37,153 nt of DNA from Candidatus Liptonbacteria bacterium (GTDB taxonomy: Bacteria > Patescibacteriota > Minisyncoccia > UBA6257 > 2-01-FULL-56-20): assembly GCA_016182105.1 (NCBI GenBank), contig JACOXZ010000004.1, positions 1-37,153 of the forward strand, written 5' to 3'. This document shows positions 3,267 through 35,453 of the stretch, one piece after another. Every line of letters begins with the position of its first letter. The stretch's first letter is position 1. Position numbers and translations under genes: made by a program. A model generated the notes under the pieces. That model was not told where the DNA came from, searched no databases, and saw nothing but the letters and a program-made list of their open reading frames with translations.

Positions 3267-3926
3267 TTACGCTTGCGATGTAAAACCCTTAATTTGGTAG
3301 TGACTGGAAAGACCGGCGGTCCCGACTTTTTCAATCAAACCCTGCTCGATAAGGGTTTGGAGGTCATAACGAACTGTTCTATCGCTTACATCCGGCAAAA
3401 ATTCCTGAATATCCTTTAATCGGCAGTTGCCGAATTGCCGGATTCTCTCGAGAATTGCCGATTGCCGGATTGCCGCTCTAATTGAAGCCTTATCATCAAT
3501 ACTTGTTTCTTCGCTGGCTTTTTTATTATCTTCTTTATGTTCTCTCTTAACTTTCTCCATATTATCCACAGGAATTGGCTTTTTGGAAAAAATAGGCTCT
3601 AAATTCAAATCCGGCAATTTTGCCGTATTCTCGAATTCGGCAATTGCCGAATTAAAATTGCCGATTTCATTAATTACTAGGTAACTGTTTGCCGGATTAA
3701 TTAGATTTACATCAGTCCCCAGCCTTAAAAGATATTCAATTGAATTTAAAACTAACCGGCATTCGGCATAATCCTTTAAAATGGCTGTGGATAAAATCTT
3801 TAGAGCTTGATCTTCTAGCTGTTTTGCCAAACTTCCGTTCTTCAGAATTCCGGATACTCTAAAAATGGCATAACTTATTTCGTAGGCCTTTTTAGTGGCA
3901 AATTGACTGAAATTGTCATCCGGCAT
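3267..3926 (-). CDS. Transcriptional regulator with a C-terminal DeoR-type winged HTH (…DVSDRTVRYDLQTLIEQGLIEKVG…). The N-terminal domain is unassigned.
   Basis: 219-aa ORF with a DeoR-like HTH motif at the C-terminus. Many CGGCAATTGCCG-type palindromes are embedded in the gene and just upstream of it. Confidence 0.55.
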   Translation of the reverse strand: MPDDNFSQFATKKAYEISYAIFRVSGILKNGSLAKQLEDQALKILSTAILKDYAECRLVLNSIEYLLRLGTDVNLINPANSYLVINEIGNFNSAIAEFENTAKLPDLNLEPIFSKKPIPVDNMEKVKREHKEDNKKASEETSIDDKASIRAAIRQSAILERIRQFGNCRLKDIQEFLPDVSDRTVRYDLQTLIEQGLIEKVGTAGLSSHYQIKGFTSQA

Positions 3927-5469: not shown

Positions 5470-8062
5470 CTTTCAGTTCTCCTCGAATAATTTTATCGGC
5501 CAATTTATCGAGGATTAATTTCTGAATGATCCTTTTCAAGGGCCTAGCACCGAACTCCGGATCAAAGCCTTCTTTGGCCAAGTGTTTGCGGGCTCCCGGA
5601 TCAATCGCGATTTTAATTCTATGCTCGAGGAGCCGCTTTTGAACCAAGTCTAGCTGGATCTCGATTATTTTTTCGATATCTTCCGGCCGCAGGGGATTGA
5701 AGATAATAATCTCATCAATGCGGTTCAAAAACTCCGGCCGGAAATTATCCCTCAATGCTGTCATGATCTTCCCTCGATAATCGTCTTCTTCTCTTTTTAA
5801 TTCCTCGTGGGAGGGAGCGGTGAAACCCAAGCTGGACATTGCCCGAAGATACTGGCTTCCTACATTCGAGGTCATAATGATAATCGAGTTTTTGAAATTC
5901 ACTATCTTGCCTTTGCCGTCGGTGAGCCTGCCGTTATCAAGAATTTGAAGGAGGATATTAAAAACTTCGGGGTGGGCTTTCTCAATTTCGTCAAAAAGAA
6001 TGAGGCTATAGGGCCTGTGGCGCACGGTCTCTGTGAGCTGTCCGCCTTCTTCGTGACCGACATAGCCGGGGGGCGAACCGATGAGGCGGCTAACCGAATG
6101 CCTCTCCATATACTCGGACATGTCAATGCGGATCAAAGCCTTGTCGTCGTTAAACATAAACTCGGCCAAGGCCTTGGCGAGTTCGGTTTTGCCGACACCG
6201 GTTGGACCAAGAAACATAAATGAACCCAAGGGACGATACTCGTCAGAAAGACCTGCTCTTGCCCTGCGCAAGGCGCTAGAAACGGCCTCGATGGCTTCTC
6301 TTTGGCCAACCACTCTTCCTTCTAAAATTTCCTCTACCTTCAAAAGCTTTTCGCTTTCTGACTCCAAAATCCTTTGAATCGGGATACCGGTCCAGACCGA
6401 AACAACGGCAGCCACATCTTCTTTATCTACTGCTTCCTTGAGGAAACGCGGGTCTTCTTCATTTTTTGTTTTAAATTTAGATCGTTCGCTGAAATTTTTC
6501 TTTTCAAAGATTTCAAAATCTTTTTGGGCTTGAGGTAACTCTCCATAGAGGAGCTTGGCCACTTTCTCGAGGTCGCCGGCTCTCTCCGCTAGCTCCGCCT
6601 CCCTCTTCAAACTTTCCATTTTCTGGCGCAGCTGATGGAGAGTTTCGAACTTGATCCGCTCGGCATGCCACTTCGCTGAAAGTTCGTCATTCCCTTCTTT
6701 GAGGCGCTTGAGTTCTCTTTCAATCTCTTTAAGCCGTTCTCCGCGCTTTTTGCCTTTTTCTTGAGAGATGGCCTGTTTTTCAATTTCTAACTTGGTTATC
6801 TCCCGGCGCAATTTATTAATTTCTTTAGGCAAACTTTCACTCTGAATTCTTCGCGCGGCTGCTGCCTCGTCAATCAAGTCCACTGCCTTATCTGGCAAAA
6901 AACGGTCAGAAATATAGCGGGCCGAGAGATTCACGGCCTCGTGAATCGCCTCGTCGCTTATGCGAATACCGTGGTGAATTTCGTATTTTTCCTTGAGACC
7001 ACGGAGGATGGAAATGCTATCTTCAATCGAGGGTTCTTCAACTAAAATCGGCTGGAAACGACGCTCCAAGGCCGGATCTTTCTCGATATAGCGCTGATAT
7101 TCCCTCGTTGTCGTTGCGCCAATCGCGTGAAGCTCGCCTCGGGCCAGCGCCGGCTTCAGGAGATTTGAAGCATCAATCGCGCCTTCGGCGGCGCCCGCAC
7201 CCACAATCGTATGGATCTCATCAATGAAGAGTAAAAGCCTACCGCTCGCGTTTTTAATTTCTTTAACAAAAGCCTTGAGACGGTCTTCAAATTCGCCACG
7301 GAATTTCGTCCCGGCAATTAGTGCCCCAAGATCAAGCATAATAATCTGTTTGTCCTTCAAGGGTTCTGGAACGTCGAGAGAGACAATCCTTTGAGCGAGG
7401 CCCTCCACAATCGCGGTTTTTCCGACACCGGACTCACCTATTAAAACAGGGTTATTTTTGGTGCGGCGGCTCAAAACCTGAATCACGCGCGAGAGCTCTT
7501 CCTCACGGCCGATCAATGGGTCAAGCTCGCCTGCCCGCGCTTTGTCTGTAAGGTTAATCGCATATTTTTCAAGCACCTGGAACTTTGTCTCTGGCGTCTC
7601 ATCAGTAATACGAACTGACCCTCGAAGCTGGGCAAGCACCCGGAAAGCTGTTTCCCTGCGGAGACCGAATTGCTGCAGAATTGCCTGGGCAGGCGAAGGC
7701 ACCTCGAGTAAGGCGAGGAGAAGATGCTCACAAGAAATGAATTCGTCTTTTTGTTGGGTCGCGATTTTCGCCGCCTGATCAAGAACCTTCATAAGCTCTT
7801 GGGAAAGGTAGAGCTGACCGATGTTTGAACCGCTTATAAGCTTAGGCAGACGCCCGAGTTCGGCTTCAATCTGTTCCTGTATTTTCTCCAAACTTATTCC
7901 CGAGCGAACCAAGACCGGCTGAACCAAAGACTGCGAATCCTGGATTAAAGCCGTAAGAAGGTGGAGAGCCTTGAGCTCGCCCTGGCTTCTTTGAGCCGCA
8001 ATATCCTGCGCGTTCTGGAGCGCCTCTTGAGCTTTAATGGTAAAACGTTGAAAGTTGGCCAT
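5414..8062 (-). CDS. clpB: ATP-dependent chaperone ClpB: two AAA+ modules with a coiled-coil middle domain.
   Basis: Walker A sites GESGVGKT and GPTGVGKT are present, with a long coiled-coil between them. 882 aa is the typical ClpB length and N-terminal domain arrangement. Confidence 0.9.
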   Translation of the reverse strand: MANFQRFTIKAQEALQNAQDIAAQRSQGELKALHLLTALIQDSQSLVQPVLVRSGISLEKIQEQIEAELGRLPKLISGSNIGQLYLSQELMKVLDQAAKIATQQKDEFISCEHLLLALLEVPSPAQAILQQFGLRRETAFRVLAQLRGSVRITDETPETKFQVLEKYAINLTDKARAGELDPLIGREEELSRVIQVLSRRTKNNPVLIGESGVGKTAIVEGLAQRIVSLDVPEPLKDKQIIMLDLGALIAGTKFRGEFEDRLKAFVKEIKNASGRLLLFIDEIHTIVGAGAAEGAIDASNLLKPALARGELHAIGATTTREYQRYIEKDPALERRFQPILVEEPSIEDSISILRGLKEKYEIHHGIRISDEAIHEAVNLSARYISDRFLPDKAVDLIDEAAAARRIQSESLPKEINKLRREITKLEIEKQAISQEKGKKRGERLKEIERELKRLKEGNDELSAKWHAERIKFETLHQLRQKMESLKREAELAERAGDLEKVAKLLYGELPQAQKDFEIFEKKNFSERSKFKTKNEEDPRFLKEAVDKEDVAAVVSVWTGIPIQRILESESEKLLKVEEILEGRVVGQREAIEAVSSALRRARAGLSDEYRPLGSFMFLGPTGVGKTELAKALAEFMFNDDKALIRIDMSEYMERHSVSRLIGSPPGYVGHEEGGQLTETVRHRPYSLILFDEIEKAHPEVFNILLQILDNGRLTDGKGKIVNFKNSIIIMTSNVGSQYLRAMSSLGFTAPSHEELKREEDDYRGKIMTALRDNFRPEFLNRIDEIIIFNPLRPEDIEKIIEIQLDLVQKRLLEHRIKIAIDPGARKHLAKEGFDPEFGARPLKRIIQKLILDKLADKIIRGELKDGSKVKVNFKVNSLVFDI

Positions 8063-8076
8063 CGCTTAGAATTTTA

Positions 8077-9348
8077 TCAGGGATTTGGCCGTTTGCCAAG
8101 AGTTACCCTAAGAGTTATCTCTTTGCCTCCGCGATTGATCTTTAGCTCTACCTTATCTCCAACGCCGAACTTCGAGATCGCTTCAATGAGCGTCCTGTCT
8201 TTGTCGATCTTTTCGCCGCTCACTTCTAAAATTATATCTTCCGCTTGAAGACCGAAGAGAGCCGCGGGTGAGTTTGGCTCCACGGCTGGTCCCTCATCGC
8301 TTCCTCTAACCAGTGCACCGTATTCAACCGGGAGTTTCTGCTGTTTCGCTATCTCCGGAGTCACTATAAAATAGCGAACCCCCAAAAACGGCGCCTGGAT
8401 CTCGCCCGTGGCTCTAACAGACTGGATATCGCGTTTAGCGAGATTCACTGGAATAGCAAAACCGATACTCTGGGCACCGGAGGCAATGGCCGTGTTAATG
8501 CCCACGACCTGGCCCCGTAGATTTAAAAGCGGACCGCCGGAATTGCCCTGGTTAATCGCCGCGTCGGTTTGAATTACGCCCTGAAGCCGTTCACTAAAAT
8601 CGCCTCCGCCAGAAGCAACGATGTTCCTTGAGAGGCCGGAGATAACACCTACGGAAACCGTGTTTCGGAATTCCCCTAAGGCATTCCCTATCGCAATCGC
8701 AGTTTGTCCGATCTCTAGAGTGTCGGAATCGCCGAGCTCGACCACCTTAAGGCCATGGGCTTCGATTTTAATTATGGCCAAATCCTGGGCTGGATCTCTC
8801 GCTAAAACTTTGGCTGAATATTTTTTGCCGTCATTCGTAAAAACAGTGTAGGAGGCCGTTCTGTCGGCAACCACGTGCTTGTTCGTCAAAATAAGGCCGT
8901 CAGAAGAAATAATGAAGCCGCTGCCGCCGCCAACTTCTTCAAACCTGGTGCCTTTCTCGCAGGGAACAAAAAATTGAGGAAACTGATCGCCGAAAAGATC
9001 CCTGAATTCCGGCGGCAAGTCTAGGAAAGGACTCGAAGGGCAATTTTCAATAATGGAAACATTCTTGGAGATAGTAATCGAAACCACTGCCGGCGAGGTT
9101 TTTTTAACCGCCTCAACCACTGCTCTTTCATAATCAATGGCTGGTTTATAAAGAGGAGTTGGGCTTTCTTTTGGCGGCTCGGTGGTCGGCGCTCCTGGTT
9201 TCTCGCCGGTTAAGGGCAAGATAAAGTTTTTGAAAAAGTCCTCAAAGATATTGGCCTTGGCCGTTTCTCTCGTAATCCCAAAACCGATGATTGCTCCTAA
9301 AAGTAGTATTCCCGAAAAGGCCAATAAAAATTTATAGCTTTTTTTCAT
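8077..9348 (-). CDS. htrA: HtrA/DegP-family periplasmic serine protease with a C-terminal PDZ domain. The likely true start is MKKSYKFLL. The ORF-track start at 9378 adds MRRSRSASNG, which is encoded by a terminal repeat of the element at 9346-9467.
   Basis: Trypsin-like catalytic motifs are present, including GNSGGPLLN. A PDZ-like C-terminus and an N-terminal TM anchor are visible. The gene lies 14 nt upstream of clpB on the same strand. Confidence 0.85.
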   Translation of the reverse strand: MKKSYKFLLAFSGILLLGAIIGFGITRETAKANIFEDFFKNFILPLTGEKPGAPTTEPPKESPTPLYKPAIDYERAVVEAVKKTSPAVVSITISKNVSIIENCPSSPFLDLPPEFRDLFGDQFPQFFVPCEKGTRFEEVGGGSGFIISSDGLILTNKHVVADRTASYTVFTNDGKKYSAKVLARDPAQDLAIIKIEAHGLKVVELGDSDTLEIGQTAIAIGNALGEFRNTVSVGVISGLSRNIVASGGGDFSERLQGVIQTDAAINQGNSGGPLLNLRGQVVGINTAIASGAQSIGFAIPVNLAKRDIQSVRATGEIQAPFLGVRYFIVTPEIAKQQKLPVEYGALVRGSDEGPAVEPNSPAALFGLQAEDIILEVSGEKIDKDRTLIEAISKFGVGDKVELKINRGGKEITLRVTLGKRPNP

Positions 9349-9467
9349 CCCGTTAGAAGCAGATCGCGATCTGCGCAAGTCTGCAGGTTTACCTTATTGT
9401 AACGACTATGCATTTGGTTGATATTCAATTTATTTGCAACGCGATCGCGGCTTCTAACGGGACTCAT
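9346..9467 (-). repeat. Copy 1 of the TIR-bounded intergenic element. Left arm CATCCCGTTAGAAGCAGATCGCGATCTGCG; right arm CGCGATCGCGGCTTCTAACGGGACTCAT. It spans exactly from the iscS stop (ATGA overlap) to the htrA ATG.
   Basis: Inverted repeat with a CCCGTTAGAAGC core, and each arm carries its own GATCGCGATC / GCGATCGC palindrome. The AT-rich centre is about 65 nt. Homologous copies are at 26963-27088 and 31175-31298, and a fourth pair flanks tRNA-Pro. Confidence 0.6.
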
Positions 9468-10768
9468 TTCAAAATTATTTTAATAATCCCAAGTCCATTG
9501 TCAATCTCGCTTTTAGTGGTTGGCCGGCCGAAACTTATCCGAAGACTTTTTTTAATCCGGTCTCCCGTAAAACCCAAAGCTTTAAGCACGTATGATGGCT
9601 CGGCGCTTCTTGACCGACAGGCTGAACCCGTTGAAACCGCTAAACCCCTTAAATCAAATTTAATAGTGAGATCTTCGGCCTCATAATCGGGAAAGTAGAT
9701 ATTCAAAATATTCGGCAGCCGCTCGCCTTTTTCCTTAGGACCGTTAAGTTCGACTCCTGGGTAAATTTTTTTTAGGCCCTCGAGAAAATACTCCGAAAGT
9801 TCCCGGAGGCGTTTAGCTTCTCTCTCTTTATTTTTTTGAATAAGTTCTACTGCCTTCGCAAAACCAACTACTAAGAGAACGTTCTCCGTGCCGGAACGCA
9901 AAGAGAACTCCTGGCCGCCGCCAGTGATAATAGGTTTTAGGTGATAAGTTTTAGGTGATAAGTTCCGAATGTATAGGGCGCCGACGCCTTTGGGACCGTA
10001 AATTTTATGAGCCGAGATGGTCATCAAATCAACCCCGAGCTTTTTGACATTACAATCTAAAAACTGGAATGCTTGGCTGGCATCGGTATGAAATAATGGA
10101 TAAAGCCAGCCAAATTTTCCTTCCCGGCTACCGCTCGGCCGCCCAGCGAGCGGCCTCGCTGGCGATGCTCCCTGCGCTCCTCCCCGCTCTGCGGGGAGAC
10201 CATGCCCGCTCGGTCGCATAGCCGCGCCAGCAAGGGAAATTTGGCTGGCCTTGAAGTCAGAGATAATTTTCGAAATCTCGGCTATTGGCTCTATAGTCCC
10301 AATCTCGTTATTAGCATACATTATCGAAACCAAGATAGTTCGCTCGTCCAAAAATGACTCGAGTTTTTTTAAATCAACCAGCCCTCCTTCTTGAACCGAA
10401 AGGTAGACTACCTCTACTCCTTCGGTCTTCAGATCCTCCACGGTTTCAAGAATTGATTCGTGTTCAATAGAGGAAACAATAATCTTGGGAATAACTGACG
10501 GATAATTTGCTTTAAAAACTTTAATCGCGCCCCGCAAAGCCAAATTATTAGCTTCGGTAGCAGAACCAGTAAAAATAATCTCGCGAAAATCAACGCCCAG
10601 AGCCGCGGCTATCGTCTCTCTTCCGCGATCTAGAGCGGCGATTGCTTCCTGACCGAAAGAATGAAGCGAACCCGGATTCCCGAAGGCCAGGGAGAAATAG
10701 GGCCTCATCGCCAATTCAACCTCCGGATGAACGGGGGTTGAAGAAGCGTAGTCTAAATATATTCTCAT
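9464..10768 (-). CDS. iscS: Cysteine desulfurase (IscS/NifS family, PLP-dependent). It carries an in-frame insertion of about 50 aa that is GC-rich at the DNA level.
   Basis: SAHKIYGPKGVGALY PLP-lysine motif and the C-terminal GSACRSRSAEPSYVL active-site Cys loop are present. The insert SQISLAGAAMRPSGHGLPAERGGAQGASPARPLAGRPSGSREGKFGWLYP lies between conserved blocks, as seen by comparison with the E. coli IscS sequence from memory. Confidence 0.85.
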   Translation of the reverse strand: MRIYLDYASSTPVHPEVELAMRPYFSLAFGNPGSLHSFGQEAIAALDRGRETIAAALGVDFREIIFTGSATEANNLALRGAIKVFKANYPSVIPKIIVSSIEHESILETVEDLKTEGVEVVYLSVQEGGLVDLKKLESFLDERTILVSIMYANNEIGTIEPIAEISKIISDFKASQISLAGAAMRPSGHGLPAERGGAQGASPARPLAGRPSGSREGKFGWLYPLFHTDASQAFQFLDCNVKKLGVDLMTISAHKIYGPKGVGALYIRNLSPKTYHLKPIITGGGQEFSLRSGTENVLLVVGFAKAVELIQKNKEREAKRLRELSEYFLEGLKKIYPGVELNGPKEKGERLPNILNIYFPDYEAEDLTIKFDLRGLAVSTGSACRSRSAEPSYVLKALGFTGDRIKKSLRISFGRPTTKSEIDNGLGIIKIILK

Positions 10769-20556: not shown

Positions 20557-20600
20557 ACATTCGTGGTATTCGCATAAATTCGTAGATTGGCATTATTTTT
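20557..20600 (-). promoter_or_regulatory. Conserved leader motif directly upstream of the pnp ATG. On the plus strand it reads ATTCGTGGTATTCGCATAAATTCGTAGATTGGCATTAT: three ATTCG direct repeats plus ATTGGCAT.
   Basis: It is about 90% identical to 28381-28427 upstream of the solute-binding protein gene. The same words also occur upstream of glyA at 36677-36770. Confidence 0.5.
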
Positions 20601-21177
20601 TAATAATAATTCGGGGAATTTCCTCAATATTCACAAACCGGTCAGCCGCTTCCTGAATCTTCGCGGAGGCGCTTCTCCTGAAAGCCGCGACTTCCACAAA
20701 TCGGCCCATACCCCATTTTAAATAATCAATAAGCGGCATAAAGTCGCCGTCGCCTGTCACAAGAACCACCACGTCTAAAAATGAAGCCATCCGAATCGCG
20801 TCAACTGCCATGCCGACATCCCAATCAGCTTTCCTAAGACCATCAGGATAAATCTGGAGCTCTTTGGACCTAAGCTCCAGGCCTGATTTTTCCAGAGCTT
20901 CGAAAAAAGAAGTTTCCCCTGCCGCGGTTTCACTACTTACCACGTAGGCTACTGCCCGGATAAGTTGCCGACTACCAACAAGGTACTTTATGAGCTCGCG
21001 ATAATTTACGCGGCCGTGGTATAAGTTCTTCGCTGAATGGTAAAGATTTTGAACGTCAACAAAAATCCCTACCCGCTGATTCTCATAACTGCTGTCTGAC
21101 CGGTTAATTAACATGCCAATTTTGTTCGAGCGAAGCGAGAAGACCCGCCTGCCGGACGGGCAGGCAAAATTGAGCAC
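20593..21177 (-). CDS. NYN-domain (LabA/DUF88-like) protein, a predicted RNA nuclease, inserted between rpsO and pnp.
   Basis: VGIFVDVQNLYHSAKNLY... and a C-terminal LVTGDGDFMPLIDYL fit the NYN/LabA-like fold. Confidence 0.55.
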   Translation of the reverse strand: MLNFACPSGRRVFSLRSNKIGMLINRSDSSYENQRVGIFVDVQNLYHSAKNLYHGRVNYRELIKYLVGSRQLIRAVAYVVSSETAAGETSFFEALEKSGLELRSKELQIYPDGLRKADWDVGMAVDAIRMASFLDVVVLVTGDGDFMPLIDYLKWGMGRFVEVAAFRRSASAKIQEAADRFVNIEEIPRIIIKK

Positions 21178-21743: not shown

Positions 21744-22614
21744 GTGATGGGACTAGAAAATCTTCTAAAAGATTATCTGAATTACCTGGAGATTGAAAAG
21801 AATAGAACGCTCGAGACCCGCGAAAATTACGAGCATTATTTGAATACCTTTTTGGCCTCGGCCAAAGTCCGCGACCCAGAAGAGATTACTGATAGAATCG
21901 TGCGCAATTTCCGGTTGACTTTGGCTCGGAAAAACATCAAAAAAATCACCCAGAATTATTACGTGATTGCCTTACGGAATTTCTTAAAATATCTAGTGAA
22001 GCGCGATATAAAAACCCTTTCGCCTGACAAAGTAGAGCTTCCTAAGGTAAGCCGGGCTGAAATTGAAACCTTGGAATATGAAGATTTGGAGCGCTTGCTT
22101 AAAGCTCCCAAAGGCCGCGACCCACGTAGTCTCCGCGACCGCGCGATTCTAGAAACACTTTTTTCAACCGGGCTCCGGCTTTCGGAACTTTGCGCCTTGA
22201 ACCGCTACTTGGATTTGAAACGGGGCGAAATTTCGGTTCGCGGCAAGGGCGGCAAGCTCCGGCTGGTTTTCATCTCGGACCGGGCCAAAGGAGCCATTAA
22301 AGAATATCTTCAAGGAAGGACTTGTGAGCCTAACTAAAAAAGGACGAGCCACCCACAGGATCACGCCCAGAGCCGTGGAACGTCTAGTTAATCATTGGGC
22401 CAAAGCCGCTGGCATCCCCAAAAAAGTCCACCCTCACCTCATCCGCCACCAATTCGCCACAGACCTTTTAATAAACGGCGCTGACCTCCGTTCGGTCCAA
22501 ATTCTCCTCGGCCACTCGAATATCTCGACCACCCAAATCTATACGCATTTAACCAACAAAGAACTCCGCGAGGTTCACAAAGCTTTTCACGGGAGAAGAC
22601 GAAAAGAAAAGTGA
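21744..22614 (+). pseudogene. xerC: XerC/XerD-like tyrosine recombinase split by a +1 frameshift near 22318-22326. Parts: 21744..22337 (N-terminal SAM-like plus start of catalytic domain) and 22324..22614 (catalytic C-terminus with HxxR and the Tyr nucleophile).
   Basis: The N-terminal LLKDYLNYLEIEKNRTLETRENYEHYLNTF resembles the XerC N-terminus. C-terminal motifs are [26 protein letters not shown]. The two frames join as ...EYLQGR / [10 protein letters not shown]... with one extra nucleotide. Confidence 0.65.
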
Positions 22615-23477
22615 CGGGAAAAATGCGGCTTAGAAAAAGAATCATGACTATATTGGCACTAGCCGCGCTTTACCTTATCCTCACCTCCTTATGGGGGTTC
22701 TACAGTGCCATTAAACCACATAGAATTCTTTCAAAAATCACGCCGCAAAATTTTGGTCTTGAATACGAAACGGTTGTGTTTCAAACCAAAGATAATTTGA
22801 AACTGCACGGCTGGTGGGTACCGAACAAAACAAGTGGTGCAAAAACAATCATTATCCTGCACGGTTATCCGGCGGACAAAGGCAATGTTCTTCCGGCTCT
22901 ATTATTTTTGGCCCCAAAGTACAACCTTTTTTTGTTCGACTTCCGCTATCTTGGCCAAAGCGATGGCACTTATTCAACTGCCGGCGCAAAAGAAATTGAT
23001 GATCTGCTCTCTGCGATCGAGTATCTGAAAACGCGGGATATTAACGAAGTTGGCGTCTGGGGTTTTTCAATGGGCGGCGCCGTGGCTCTGGTGACCGCGA
23101 GAGAAGCGCCGGAGATAAAAGCAATTGTTTCCGAGGCGGCCTATGCCCGGCTCAAACTCATGGCTTATGAGCTCTATCGACTCCCGCTCCTGAAATACCC
23201 CTTGGGCTGGCTCACTGGAATTTGGGCCAAAGCGTTTTTGGGTATTGACCTCACAAAGATTGCCCCAGTTGAGTCGGCGAAAGAGATCATTCTTCCGGTT
23301 TTACTGATTCACTCCACTAACGATGAAGTGATTCCGTTTTCCCACGCTTTGCTCATCAAAGACGCCCTAAAAGACAACAAGAAGGCCGAATTCTGGTTCA
23401 GGGAAAATCTGGTTCACGGCGAGCTCGGTCAAGAGTACGAAAAACGCATCGAGGATTTTTTCGCAAGAAACCTATAA
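22611..23477 (+). CDS. Membrane-anchored alpha/beta-fold hydrolase (GxSxG serine hydrolase).
   Basis: N-terminal TM, then HGYPADKGN and the nucleophile elbow GFSMGG, plus acid and His residues (…[10 protein letters not shown]…). Confidence 0.55.
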
Positions 23478-23486
23478 GCGTCGAGT

Positions 23487-23620
23487 GTGGGCAGGGAGGA
23501 TTTTCACTGCTCGGTCGCCGTCGGCGACCTCCGCTCTAAGAACCCTCGGTTCTTAGTATTCTCCGAGACGGGAGGACGTTATCTCCTCCCGACCCCTCCT
23601 TTTGTTCAAATCCTCCTATG
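23487..23620. repeat. Three-hairpin element, copy A. Hairpin 0 is GGTCGCC-GTC-GGCGACC, hairpin 1 is CTAAGAACC-CTC-GGTTCTTAG and hairpin 2 is CGGGAGGA-CGTTATC-TCCTCCCG. An inverted T-arm copy GTTCAAATCCTCC follows. A degenerate direct repeat of the tRNA 3' end (GGCAGGGAGGATTTTCAC) lies at the left.
   Basis: It is homologous to 33047-33160 (copy B), with compensatory changes in all three stems. Confidence 0.55.
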
Positions 23621-23675
23621 TGCCCCCGGGAGGATTTGAACCTCCACGCCTTTCGGCATACGGTCCTAAACCGTA
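23621..23675 (-). pseudogene. 3' fragment of a tRNA-Leu(UAG)-like gene: anticodon arm TACGG-TTTAGGA-CCGTA, long variable hairpin GCCGAAAGGC, T-arm GGAGGTTCAAATCCTCC and 3' acceptor strand CGGGGGCA. No matching 5' acceptor or D-arm is present.
   Basis: Hand folding of the reverse complement of 23621-23700. The 5' 25 nt neither pair with the 3' acceptor nor form a D-arm. Confidence 0.4.
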
Positions 23676-23729
23676 TGTGTCTTTGAAAACTGAAAACCGC
23701 AGTCAAACTAAGATAAAAAGGAGGATCAC

Positions 23730-24860
23730 ATGGAAGAGTTCATGTTAGGACTGTACGTCAGCGTAGGCATTGCGGTAGGCATTGCGAGCGTTGCCGCTCT
23801 ACTCTACTCTGTTATTTTGCTTATCAACTTCCTGGCAAAACGCAACTTATTTTTTACTATTGTCCAGGAAGGGAAGGCGAAGGCAGTCAAAAAGTGGGGG
23901 GAGTTTCACAAACTTATCATTGTCTACAAAGACCATGCCTTCGATCAAGACTGGAATGTCCGCCATGCTAGCCTAGCTGATGAAGAAGCAGAGGATTTTT
24001 GGGACGACAAAACACAAGGATTCGTTAAGAAACAAGTGGAGCTGCAGATCCAAAAACCACTCTTTGGCGGACTACTGGGAAAGATAATCGGAAAGGTGTT
24101 TTGGATAGGCATTCCGCCTATCTACACAATCCATGAATATACTTTCCGATGGCTAGGACTCCGGCAAAGAGCTCGCAAAGAACTAGGCAGAGAGGGTGAG
24201 CTAGTAGAACAAGTTGTAGATCGAGAAGAACAACTGGACTTCATCTTGCTCCAGGACGATACATACTTTACCTTCATCAAGAGGGCTGAAACTAGAGGCA
24301 AGGGGATGTTGGTTCCTATAGATGTTGAGGTAATTCTCACTATTAGGATCGTGAACCCCTACAAAGCCCTATTCAGGGTGCAGGACTGGCTTGAAGTAAC
24401 ACTAAATCAGTTAATCCCGGTTGTCCGAGGATTCGTGAGTAGCCGCGAGTATGAAACAGTGATTAGCGGCCTTGAAGAGGGAAAACCGAAACCCGAAAGA
24501 GACGAATCAATGGAGCCCGAGGCGAGAAAGAAAGACCCCCTCCTCGCAGGCATTGCCCACTATGTTTTAACTCGCTATGGTGTCCTAATCAAAAAGGTGG
24601 GCATTGGTAGCGTGACTCCGCCTGAAGAGGTAGCAACCGCCGGAATCAAAAAATGGGGGGCTGAACGGGAGAAGGAAAGAATCCAGGCTGTTTATCAAAC
24701 AATCGCGGATTTTGGAGACACTGGTTTACTCGTTCGAACGCTGGAAGCAGTAGAAAGTGCGGGAAATAAGCAAGGTAACTGGGTCATTCCCTTGGGCTTA
24801 TCGCCCCAGAGCATACTCGAATCAATCAGGGGCAGAAAAAAGGAGGAGGTAGAAAAATGA
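23730..24860 (+). CDS. SPFH/band-7 (stomatin/prohibitin/HflK-C-like) domain membrane protein. A strong GGAGG Shine-Dalgarno lies 8 nt upstream.
   Basis: N-terminal TM, then FTIVQEGKAKAVKKWGEFHK… and …VPIDVEVILTIRIVNPYKALFRVQDWLEVTLNQLIPVVRGFVSS…, which resemble the SPFH core. The C-terminal charged region is coiled-coil-like. Confidence 0.5.
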   Translation: MEEFMLGLYVSVGIAVGIASVAALLYSVILLINFLAKRNLFFTIVQEGKAKAVKKWGEFHKLIIVYKDHAFDQDWNVRHASLADEEAEDFWDDKTQGFVKKQVELQIQKPLFGGLLGKIIGKVFWIGIPPIYTIHEYTFRWLGLRQRARKELGREGELVEQVVDREEQLDFILLQDDTYFTFIKRAETRGKGMLVPIDVEVILTIRIVNPYKALFRVQDWLEVTLNQLIPVVRGFVSSREYETVISGLEEGKPKPERDESMEPEARKKDPLLAGIAHYVLTRYGVLIKKVGIGSVTPPEEVATAGIKKWGAEREKERIQAVYQTIADFGDTGLLVRTLEAVESAGNKQGNWVIPLGLSPQSILESIRGRKKEEVEK

Positions 24861-34720: not shown

Positions 34721-35453
34721 CTAGTTTAAGCTGTAAAAATTCTCGAAGATCTTCGCAACTAGGATTGGGCCGGTGCCGCTTGGAACAGGTGTATAGGTTA
34801 TAGGTTTTAGGTTATAGGTTGGGGACGAAAGCGAAGCAGCGTCGAAGTCGCCACGGCCGTTGTCGTAGCCGAAATCAATGAGGAGTGCACCGGATTTGAG
34901 CATCTCGGGCTTGATGAGTCCTGCCTTACCGACGCCGGAGATGATAAGGTCCATATTTTTCAAAACACCGAAATCACTGCCTCTATCCAGAACATAAAGT
35001 TCGCGAACTTTTCCCAAGAGCCAGGTCACGATAACCTTGCCAACTAAAAAGCCGGTTCCCACGACCGCCACCTTGCTAGTGAGTATAAAACGCGCCAAGC
35101 GCCCGTTCGCCCAAAACATCCACGTCCTTTTCGCGAGGAATGACATTCAAGATATAGTGCTTATTCAAATGCTCAGGAAGTGGCAACTGCACAATCACCC
35201 CGCCGCAGGTCTTGTGTTTTGAAATTTTTAACACTTCTTCTCGGAGCGAATCGTTTTTAATCTCTTTAGGAAATTTATAAAGCCGGAAATCTACCCCCAG
35301 CTCTTTCGCGGCTTTTTCTTTTTGCTTTAGGAAACTGATTGACGCGGGATCCTCGCCAACCAAAACTGTGGCCAAGAATTTTTCAGGTTTTGGTTTAGAC
35401 CGCAGTTTAGCAAGAATACTTTCAGCGATTTTTTTGCCGTCGATAACATTCAT
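34721..35453 (-). pseudogene. folD: Bifunctional methylenetetrahydrofolate dehydrogenase/cyclohydrolase FolD, disrupted. The N-terminal ORF 35076..35453 and C-terminal ORF 34721..35146 overlap in different frames. The conserved PCTP segment appears to be missing. The C-terminal part carries an in-frame insertion of about 8 aa (PTYNLKPI) encoded by the 23-nt repeat.
   Basis: N-terminal: …GVIVQLPLPEHLN…EKDVDVLG… C-terminal: …VAVVGTGFLVGKV…SGVGKAGLIKPEMLKSGALLIDFG…TPVPSGTGPILVA… Compared with E. coli FolD from memory, about 23 residues around PRLRPCTPRG are absent. Confidence 0.55.

Follow-up and report, generated by a model that had tools for sequence, protein, structure and literature searches.

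The 37,153-nucleotide contig JACOXZ010000004.1 of a Candidatus Liptonbacteria bacterium (assembly GCA_016182105.1), which as a whole is referred to here as the window, carries two copies, A and B, of a short element built of three hairpins and situated next to tRNA sequences. The evidence below leans towards A and B being members of a family of small, non-autonomous mobile DNA elements of Patescibacteria that insert with a target-restoring duplication. Their insertion signature is unusual: the duplicated stretch of target rebuilds the gene, and an inverted copy of the target forms a stem. With a core of about 100-130 nt, the element is widespread in the ultra-small Patescibacteria and apparently undescribed.

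Two homologous copies of the element in the window

The preliminary description of this DNA, made from its letters only, had aligned copy A with copy B and proposed that double substitutions preserve the pairing of their stems. A shuffle test and a covariance model bear out the homology, copy A extending over 23504-23616 and copy B over 33046-33156. The alignment is not spurious: it is the best non-self local alignment of the window, none of 2000 shuffles reaches its score, and a repeat search of the window also pairs A with B (40 nt, 78% identity). The covariance model of the core matches the window at two places only, 33073-33142 (84 bits) and 23530-23602 (76 bits), and detects no third copy there. 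Common to A and B are a hairpin 1 of 9 bp with the loop CTC, the junction TATTYTCC-NNNA, a hairpin 2 with the base CGGGA/TCCCG and a variable top, and the tail ACCCCTYCC. Pairing in hairpin 1 is kept through three double substitutions in nine pairs (CTAAGAACC/GGTTCTTAG in A, TTAGAAACC/GGTTTCTAA in B), and that in hairpin 2 through another three (CGGGAGGA/TCCTCCCG in A, CGGGAAAC/GTTTCCCG in B). Hairpin 0 is indeed present in both copies, but the column-wise covariation that had been claimed for it fails, the stems of 7 bp and 4-5 bp differing in sequence and not being alignable; it is a variable hairpin at a conserved position.

The core is enclosed by an extra closing stem, P1, in which GGAGGATTT (23495-23503) pairs with AAATCCTCC (23608-23616) in copy A, and GGTCAGA (33039-33045) pairs with TCTGACC (33150-33156) in copy B. 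A direct repeat of the neighbouring tRNA 3' end, designated S, precedes both copies and contributes the 5' strand of P1, while the 3' strand belongs to a segment after the core designated X'. Both copies fold with P1 as a fourth stem, as RNA and as DNA and on either strand, with z-scores of -4.4 to -5.8 for copy A (RNA and DNA, both strands). The two loci comprise the following features:

23486-23503, + strand: left repeat of copy A (S-left), TGTGGGCAGGGAGGATTT, reverse complement of the tRNA-Leu 3' end
23504-23603, + strand: core of copy A, containing its covariance model match and consisting of junction TCACTGCTC, hairpin 0 (23513-23529), TCCGCT, hairpin 1 (23536-23556), TATTCTCCGAGA, hairpin 2 (23569-23591) and tail ACCCCTCCTTTT
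23604-23616, + strand: X' of copy A, GTTCAAATCCTCC, sense copy of tRNA-Leu positions ~53-65
23619-23680, - strand: tRNA-Leu(UAG) pseudogene retaining the anticodon arm, long variable arm, T-arm, 3' acceptor and ACA
33031-33045, + strand: left repeat of copy B, GTGCCGCGGGTCAGA, direct repeat of 33201-33215
33046-33140, + strand: core of copy B, with its covariance model match and consisting of junction CGCTCCGCTATCTCACT, hairpin 0 (33063-33074), hairpin 1 (33079-33099), TATTTTCCTATA, hairpin 2 (33112-33131) and tail ACCCCTTCC
33141-33156, + strand: X' of copy B, CAGTTCGATTCTGACC, sense copy of the tRNA-Phe T-arm (positions ~51-66) and 3' strand of P1
33159-33200, no strand assigned: 18-bp perfect hairpin between X' of copy B and tRNA-Phe
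33199-33273, - strand: intact tRNA-Phe(GAA), target gene of copy B (ARAGORN; Rfam, 72.4 bits)

S-left of copy A spans the T-loop, the 3' strand of the T-stem, the acceptor and ACA, and its last 9 nt act as 5' strand of P1. In copy B, the left repeat is the reverse complement of tRNA-Phe positions 60-75 and provides the 5' strand of P1 with its last 7 nt. X' of copy A supplies the 3' strand of P1 and, in addition, pairs with the real T-arm at 23629-23641 (GGAGGATTTGAAC), the two forming the perfect 13-bp inverted repeat that had already been noticed as an inverted T-arm. At locus B, 42 nt separate the element from the 3' end of tRNA-Phe(GAA), which is encoded on the opposite strand, and the hairpin at 33159-33200 is both a terminator-like trailer of this tRNA and the centre of a palindrome made up of X' and the real T-arm.

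The element recurs across Patescibacteria

The core, composed of hairpin 1, TATTYTCC and the ACGGGA hairpin 2 (TCCCGACCCC), occurs in at least 156 copies in about 145 Patescibacteria contigs. This figure combines 110 and 46 covariance model matches in the fetched loci, several contigs carrying two, and is a lower bound; a looser pattern also has matches in metagenomes. More than 150 homologous copies score 34-91 bits with the covariance model. When one genome per species was scanned with an exact pattern, 27 loci emerged, and about 24 of these are real; every named record amongst the real loci belongs to Patescibacteria (Paceibacterota, Saccharibacteria-labelled, Nealsonbacteria, Colwellbacteria), the others being unclassified 'bacterium' metagenome-assembled genomes. 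Around half of the copies are of a type, here called Saccharibacteria-type, that has the tail CCCCTCTCC-GATGTGGGATG and a 5' extension (..GTGGTAATACCRAGTTAG-GTCGC..) abutting the start codons of S17, L14, S18, NusG, S21, GatC and others.

A scan of the window against Rfam 15 at gathering thresholds returned four tRNAs and no family for the element, and lowering the threshold to E<=10 for positions 23400-23760 produced chance-level matches only, for example to Clostridiales-2 (19 bits against 58.6) and ar14. Neither a search of the literature by topic nor one by core sequence found a description of it. Viral contigs contain no match, on which ground a prophage or viral origin was rejected. The core was also considered as a small open reading frame, a promoter or a Shine-Dalgarno sequence, readings that were abandoned as no conserved start codon or -35/-10 geometry was seen.

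Insertion at tRNA and tmRNA genes duplicates and inverts the target

In 66 of 148 pattern matches a convergent tRNA gene lies within 260 nt 3' of the element, with at least 31 anticodons represented, while none of the 148 has a tRNA on the same strand or upstream of the element. At one locus (L125) the partner is tmRNA. The association is not specific to tRNA-Leu; the target is, systematically, the T-loop of any tRNA or tmRNA. More generally, the element is found beside the ends of highly conserved genes, tRNA and tmRNA genes with their T-loop region foremost among them, and about half of the copies have a convergent tRNA or tmRNA gene as partner. Ten further copies, copy A of the window included, have a T-loop-like tail with only a tRNA fragment or nothing adjoining (counting copies with enough downstream sequence; three more end at contig edges).

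Every well-preserved copy shows the same insertion signature of a target duplication plus an inverted target copy. Read 5' to 3' on the element's + strand, the order is S, core, X', a spacer, and a second S that is continuous with the rest of the gene, with X' inverting the final 5-16 nt of S. The direct repeats span 10-88 nt with one end fixed, and one intact copy of the gene always survives.

Of the 59 non-redundant copies at tRNA-type sites, 52 are preceded, 5' of the element, by a direct repeat of the 3' segment of the tRNA. The inner end of the repeat falls in the T-loop, at junctions 56|57 or 58|59, 18 or 22 nt from the 3' end. Its outer end coincides exactly with the tRNA 3' end in 14 copies, lies 1-9 nt past it in 17 and 11-76 nt past it in 15, a pile-up at the gene end that a variable-length duplication filtered by selection would give. 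CCA is part of the repeat only where the gene encodes it, which is evidence against reverse transcription of a mature tRNA. A retro-copy of this kind, with the left repeat in the role of a primer-binding-site-like 18-mer ending at m1A58, fits the boundary, but was rejected since the repeats of non-CCA genes lack CCA; a single locus (L052) is ambiguous in this respect.

X', which follows the core, is a sense-strand copy of about positions 53-65 of the adjacent tRNA. Its longest exact match averages 10.1 nt to its own tRNA as compared to 6.3 nt to other tRNAs, and its own tRNA is the better match in 56 of 59 cases. It pairs with the end of the left repeat, giving P1, and, across the trailer, with the real T-arm. 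A simple interruption of the tRNA T-arm would require the reverse complement of the T-loop after the core; the T-loop in X' is in sense orientation, and X' is thus a true inverted copy. At L020, one trailer hairpin is flipped between its two repeats.

The same signature occurs at protein-coding genes

At L034 the element lies after codon 19 of rplK; a repeat of 86 nt that includes the start of the gene flanks it on either side, and the core is followed by an inverted copy, 13 nt long, of the left repeat's last nucleotides. An equivalent arrangement is found at the 5' end of a fusA-like gene (L057), with an S of 82 nt. Another copy sits at the 3' end of rplK (L093), and three loci (L070, L131, L053) carry the element at an identical position within the final codons of rpsI. 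One of them, L070, has two nested copies, the older and more diverged one farther from the gene. Along the + strand of the element, the partial copy of a protein gene always precedes the element (5') and the complete gene follows it (3'). Junctions at protein genes share no common tetranucleotide.

Several loci contain arrays or mosaics. L022 (1-345) consists of at least 2.3 tandem units of 148 nt. At L017 (~2300-2440, - strand) and L023 (~1310-1440, - strand) the left repeat begins exactly after the ..GACCCC of the tail (CCCC|TTCC), and each locus comprises one circularly permuted full unit and one partial unit. A nick site or a rolling-circle signature is a possible reading of these three arrays. 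In L096, two copies (5473-5565 and 5965-6057) show 96% identity over the stretch that begins with hairpin 1 and closes with the tail, and have an odd hairpin 2 insertion in common, whereas their 5' parts differ and two different tRNAs adjoin them; such a mosaic indicates recombination or gene conversion between copies.

Copy A adjoins the decayed remnant of its target

ARAGORN, Rfam and syntenic relatives agree with the earlier interpretation that the neighbour of copy A is a 5'-deleted class-II tRNA-Leu(UAG) and not an intact gene. ARAGORN calls no tRNA beside copy A. The Rfam tRNA model (RF00005) scores 20.2 bits on 23619-23690 against a gathering score of 29 and finds less than a full cloverleaf: the alignment covers the anticodon arm (UAG), the long variable arm, the T-arm and the 3' acceptor, and lacks the D-arm and the 5' acceptor. 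The deleted part amounts to about 110 nt and comprises the 5' acceptor, the D-arm and the promoter region.

In the window, a gene for an SPFH protein follows at 23730-24860. Two relatives with the SPFH, pilin and solute-binding-protein block (L149, L152) have the tRNA-Leu(TAG) gene intact upstream of the SPFH gene, on the minus strand, and L148 ends within the 5' half of the tRNA, followed by the leader gtttgaaaactgaaaac as at 23681-23729 of the window. By covariance model the element is absent from all three. Because syntenic relatives hold the intact gene, the tRNA-Leu at locus A is the ancestral gene minus some 110 nt, and because the element is missing from them, it has been added here. 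The left repeat of copy A and 23619-23637 have TGTG..GGAGGATTT in common and agree in the T-arm and the ACA end, but their acceptor strands differ (GGCAG versus CCCCCG), so the repeats derive from two different tRNA-Leu genes. This is recombination through the common T-arm, and it may have inactivated the tRNA-Leu. The half tRNA-Leu beside copy A is a decayed remnant of the element's target, the 5' part of which was lost later.

An intact or intron-split tRNA-Leu at this locus was discarded as a reading: no 5' acceptor or D-arm lies nearby, and the anticodon loop is intact whereas group I introns of Patescibacteria sit at position 35/36. Separately, L149 contains a LAGLIDADG-like open reading frame (3279-3812) between the intact tRNA-Leu(TAG) and the SPFH gene that is absent from the window.

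The stems behave as DNA inverted repeats

Across 95 distinct copies, 96% of pair cells hold standard pairs and 13 of the 18 pairs are changed on both sides. There are 166 compensatory cells, a level of covariation reached in none of 500 shuffles. One-sided changes of the G-U type are confined to 4 of the 1656 pair cells. In a separate count, hairpin 2 has 987 Watson-Crick pairs, no G-U and one A-C, and hairpin 1 has 795 Watson-Crick pairs, three G-U and one A-C. The hairpin loops are reverse-complemented at L141 (both hairpins) and L122. Orientation is biased, not fixed, the + strand opposing the nearest open reading frames in a ratio of 76:11 for non-tRNA copies and 61:26 for tRNA copies. No conserved promoter or upstream motif was seen on either strand by inspection of the alignments, no formal promoter scan having been run.

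The preliminary description had taken the covariation as evidence for a functional RNA. What holds is that the element is a structured, conserved unit whose stems covary; the step to a functional RNA is not supported as it was put, given the near-absence of G-U pairs, the flipped loops, the inconstant orientation, the lack of a promoter visible by inspection and the insertion signature. Pairing that is equally good on both strands, together with the flipped loops, is how DNA inverted repeats behave, as opposed to an RNA under selection on one strand, and the hairpins are better explained at the DNA level, as those of a mobile element, than as an RNA gene. We nevertheless weighed a structured non-coding RNA, i.e. 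a small RNA or a cis element acting in tRNA 3' processing, termination or mRNA leaders, whose stems would be under RNA selection and whose tRNA-matching closing stem would serve the RNA's function. The strong covariation and the near-invariant junction nucleotides speak for it, as do the good RNA folds on both strands (z -3.8 to -5.8 in three of four folds) and the non-tRNA copies, which lie between cistrons of ribosomal-protein, ssb-rpsR, nusG and gatC operons, are mostly co-oriented so that the reverse strand is sense, and abut start codons. Yet an RNA would be expected to tolerate G-U pairs, of which there are practically none on either strand in ~1,650 pair cells, and would hardly have its loops flipped; no Rfam family matches even at the relaxed threshold, and no promoter was recognised by eye. 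The tRNA-type copies stand behind the tRNA terminator on one strand and antisense on the other, the insertions at the 5' ends of rplK and fusA are oriented opposite to most copies, and target duplications of 15-88 nt as well as tandem and nested arrays are DNA events. Taken together, we regard an RNA as an unlikely account of the family.

No recombinase was found linked to the element

An XerC/XerD-type tyrosine recombinase is encoded about 900 nt upstream of copy A:

21744-22614: XerC/XerD-type tyrosine recombinase in two overlapping open reading frames (model positions 1-190 and 209-295)

The split is due to either a frameshift or an assembly error. With this recombinase as phmmer query, no tyrosine recombinase was found near the 147 loci (968 kb), a search that divergent integrases could escape. 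The flanks contain no recurrent protein family and consist of diverse housekeeping genes, and neither an integrase nor any other family is enriched in them. A guide-RNA reading, with X' as the 3' guide of a scaffold of the TnpB or bridge-RNA kind, was likewise set aside: no nuclease or recombinase gene is nearby, and X' is identical, not complementary, to the tRNA.

These results bear on the idea that the copies are attL/attR sites left over from integrative elements, driven by an integrase, or from prophages, with the T-loops of tRNA and tmRNA genes as targets and the core as a conserved attP arm. A repeat running from the T-loop to the exact tRNA 3' end, with CCA only if encoded, is what classical tRNA-integrating elements leave behind, and the use of tmRNA, the tandem accretion in L022 and the recombinase gene near copy A would all fit. 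That gene, however, is of the frameshifted housekeeping XerC/XerD type and has no homologue near any of the loci, viral contigs contain no match, and the DNA between the repeats is only ~110-190 nt long and is the conserved core itself. Moreover, repeats of 60-88 nt occur in rplK, fusA and rpsI, which are not integrase-type sites, and an inverted target copy is not an att-site feature, making such an origin improbable to a marked degree. That A and B might be ordinary intergenic terminator hairpins, alike by chance or composition, can be dismissed: both lie at the 3' ends of + strand genes and a terminator-like hairpin follows B, but the shuffle test and the more than 150 homologous copies leave next to no room for it.

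A possible route of insertion

A mobile DNA element thus remains the reading that we favour, and its anatomy suggests how it might move. As single-stranded DNA the element would fold into a cloverleaf made of the closing stem P1 and the three hairpins. Insertion would join it to a strand end at the target, and the compact fold would return its 3' end to the junction, where a polymerase could copy the end of S, producing X' and P1; synthesis would then return to the original template upstream, whereby S would become duplicated. Such a replication-coupled, hairpin-primed or template-switch process might depend on enzymes of the host or on a nickase of the HUH type (an enzyme that cuts single-stranded DNA) not linked to the element. 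The stems would afterwards be kept perfectly Watson-Crick by recombination or gene conversion, both among copies and of X' with the T-arm next to it. Many tRNA junctions fall directly after GTTC (56|57), and these junctions and the CCCC|TTCC break, seen just 3' of hairpin 2 at two independent loci, hint at a nickase. This hairpin-primed or template-switch route in particular is offered tentatively.

Several observations count against a mobile element. Copy number is low, at 1-3 copies per contig, and a complete Nealsonbacteria genome of 640 kb has one exact pattern match. The junction sequences TATTTTCC, ACGGGA and CCCGACCCC are near-invariant across phylum-level lineages, which would suit a host function too. 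The Saccharibacteria-type copies have no clear target duplication and may be old, domesticated or functional. Similarity within a genome can stem from gene conversion and not only from recent transposition, as L096 illustrates. At tRNA sites X' looks partly element-borne, having T-loop-like termini, and the two L096 copies agree in its first 11 nt. No transposase or nickase was identified within 2-14 kb around each copy, the relatives compared are only 38-56% identical in protein sequence and include no filled/empty pair of near-identical strains, and the putative snap-back and template-switch steps are read from the anatomy alone.

Relation to known systems

The element resembles REPINs and REP-BIMEs, MITEs (miniature transposable elements with inverted repeats; Correia, ERIC, RUP) and Rickettsia palindromic elements in being short, protein-less, hairpin-forming, non-autonomous intergenic DNA. 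Like these it keeps its arms complementary by compensatory change and is probably often co-transcribed with its neighbours, and it is tolerated in or beside essential genes of small genomes, as the Rickettsia elements are. Unlike them, it lacks conserved inverted repeats at its termini, which are weakly inverted-repeat-like at tRNA sites only, along with a short target duplication of fixed length; no linked RAYT or DDE enzyme was seen, and there are only 1-3 copies per genome. Its branched three-hairpin core is conserved across phylum-level lineages, and the long, variable, gene-restoring target duplication with an inverted copy of the target end also sets it apart.

With integrative elements that target tRNA and tmRNA genes, and their cis-mobilisable derivatives, it shares the T-loop junction, a direct repeat to the tRNA 3' end that regenerates the gene, the use of tmRNA and tandem accretion. 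The T-loop is reportedly a sublocation class of integrase sites. The element differs from them in having no integrase, an insert of ~0.1-0.2 kb, at least 31 tRNAs for one core family, protein-gene targets and the inverted target copy.

HUH single-strand transposons (IS200/IS605 with PATE derivatives; IS91/ISCR) likewise have DNA hairpins near their ends, a strand or orientation bias and non-autonomous derivatives. IS91-type elements insert at GTTC/GAAC, and the GTTC tetranucleotide is present in the T-loop where many junctions of our element fall (56|57); the sharp CCCC|TTCC break would suit a HUH nick site. In contrast to our element, IS200/IS605 and IS91 elements make neither a target duplication nor an inverted target copy; furthermore, no TnpA or Rep was found near the copies, and protein-gene junctions have no tetranucleotide in common. 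The integron attC site and the CTX-phage attP(+) hairpin are comparable in that structure rather than sequence is conserved in P1, and in that two inverted target-like copies ~100 nt apart fold into a target-mimicking duplex. P1 (5-13 bp) is too short for two recombinase-binding sites, the core sequence, as opposed to that of attC, is highly conserved, and no IntI was seen, the only Xer gene being the housekeeping one in the window; attC R''/L''-L'/R' boxes with GTTRRRY are not visible in the alignments, where stems are perfect and the contexts are housekeeping operons and tRNAs.

Group I introns that reside within tRNA genes of Patescibacteria occupy position 35/36 of the anticodon loop, exceed 200 nt, lie on the tRNA strand and are self-splicing (PMC13011429). 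They present a parallel within the same phylum of tRNA genes disturbed by selfish structured nucleic acids (PMC13011429); our element, unlike them, lies outside an intact tRNA, on the opposite strand, and matches no Rfam intron.

Other features of the window

Near locus B, the 3' end of tRNA-Pro(TGG) (33551-33568), taken as reverse complement, has a diverged direct repeat, GTCGGGCTACCCGGATTC, at 33318-33335. The two enclose 214 nt of GC-rich DNA with strong self-complementarity (for example TCCCGCCTATTGTT / AACAATAGGCGGGA). This insert (33318-33568) matches neither the element model nor Rfam and has no relative among the fetched loci; it has the appearance of another insertion at the T-loop of a tRNA, different from the element but bearing its target-duplication signature. 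The stretch at 33636-33706 (- strand), just upstream of tRNA-Pro, resembles a tRNA weakly (20 bits): the acceptor and the start of the D-arm (GGCGGGCTATAGTGTAATGGTAGCAC) are good, an unrelated palindrome comes after them, and the stretch is probably another tRNA fragment.

Three classes of short repeat were observed as well. The motif TTCTAACGGG / CCCGTTAGAA stands directly at several genes' start codons and flanks tRNA-Pro on either side, often adjoins the palindrome GATCGCGATC, and may be a common promoter, operator or initiation signal; its occurrences are:

9346-9375, 9422-9467, 26963-26992, 31175-31204, 31253-31298, 33535-33547 and 33630-33642: motif TTCTAACGGG / CCCGTTAGAA

A 44-nt repeat (20559-20602 and 28389-28432, 89% identical) lies directly upstream of pnp and of a solute-binding-protein gene, both on the minus strand, and is a common leader or promoter. 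Short tandem or inverted repeats of ATAGGTTTTAGGT(G/T)ATA are found at 9930-9964, 33748-33777 and 34794-34820; one set is situated just upstream of tRNA-Arg, and L094 has a similar stretch.

Implications

The tiny genomes of Patescibacteria are regarded as poor in mobile DNA, yet a single conserved element of 100 nt occurs in many of their lineages, placed at genes whose loss they could bear least. If the element is mobile, as its anatomy suggests, it offers an example of how essential genes can be entered without being destroyed, through the duplication of gene ends. The variable direct repeat with an inverted target copy as a stem fits no standard transposon, integrase or intron class that we compared. 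In practical terms, the element yields tRNA fragments and pseudo-tRNAs that mislead annotation, along with long hairpins at tRNA 3' ends, and it is a ready marker of horizontal exchange among lineages of the candidate phyla radiation (CPR).

If it is an RNA instead, it would be a new and widespread CPR RNA class. As for the mobile element, a more far-reaching proposal, which we consider conceivable though doubtful, is that it represents protein-less selfish DNA of a new kind: a ~100-nt cloverleaf without an element-encoded recombinase that would invade the ends of the most conserved genes (tRNA and tmRNA T-loops, rplK, rpsI, fusA), either through synthesis that is primed by a hairpin or switches template or through a nick made at CCCC|TTCC, the target end being copied twice, once inverted to give the closing stem and once directly to rebuild the gene. 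Should this be true, the element's own homology to a universal target would allow it to spread between distant Patescibacteria via DNA uptake.

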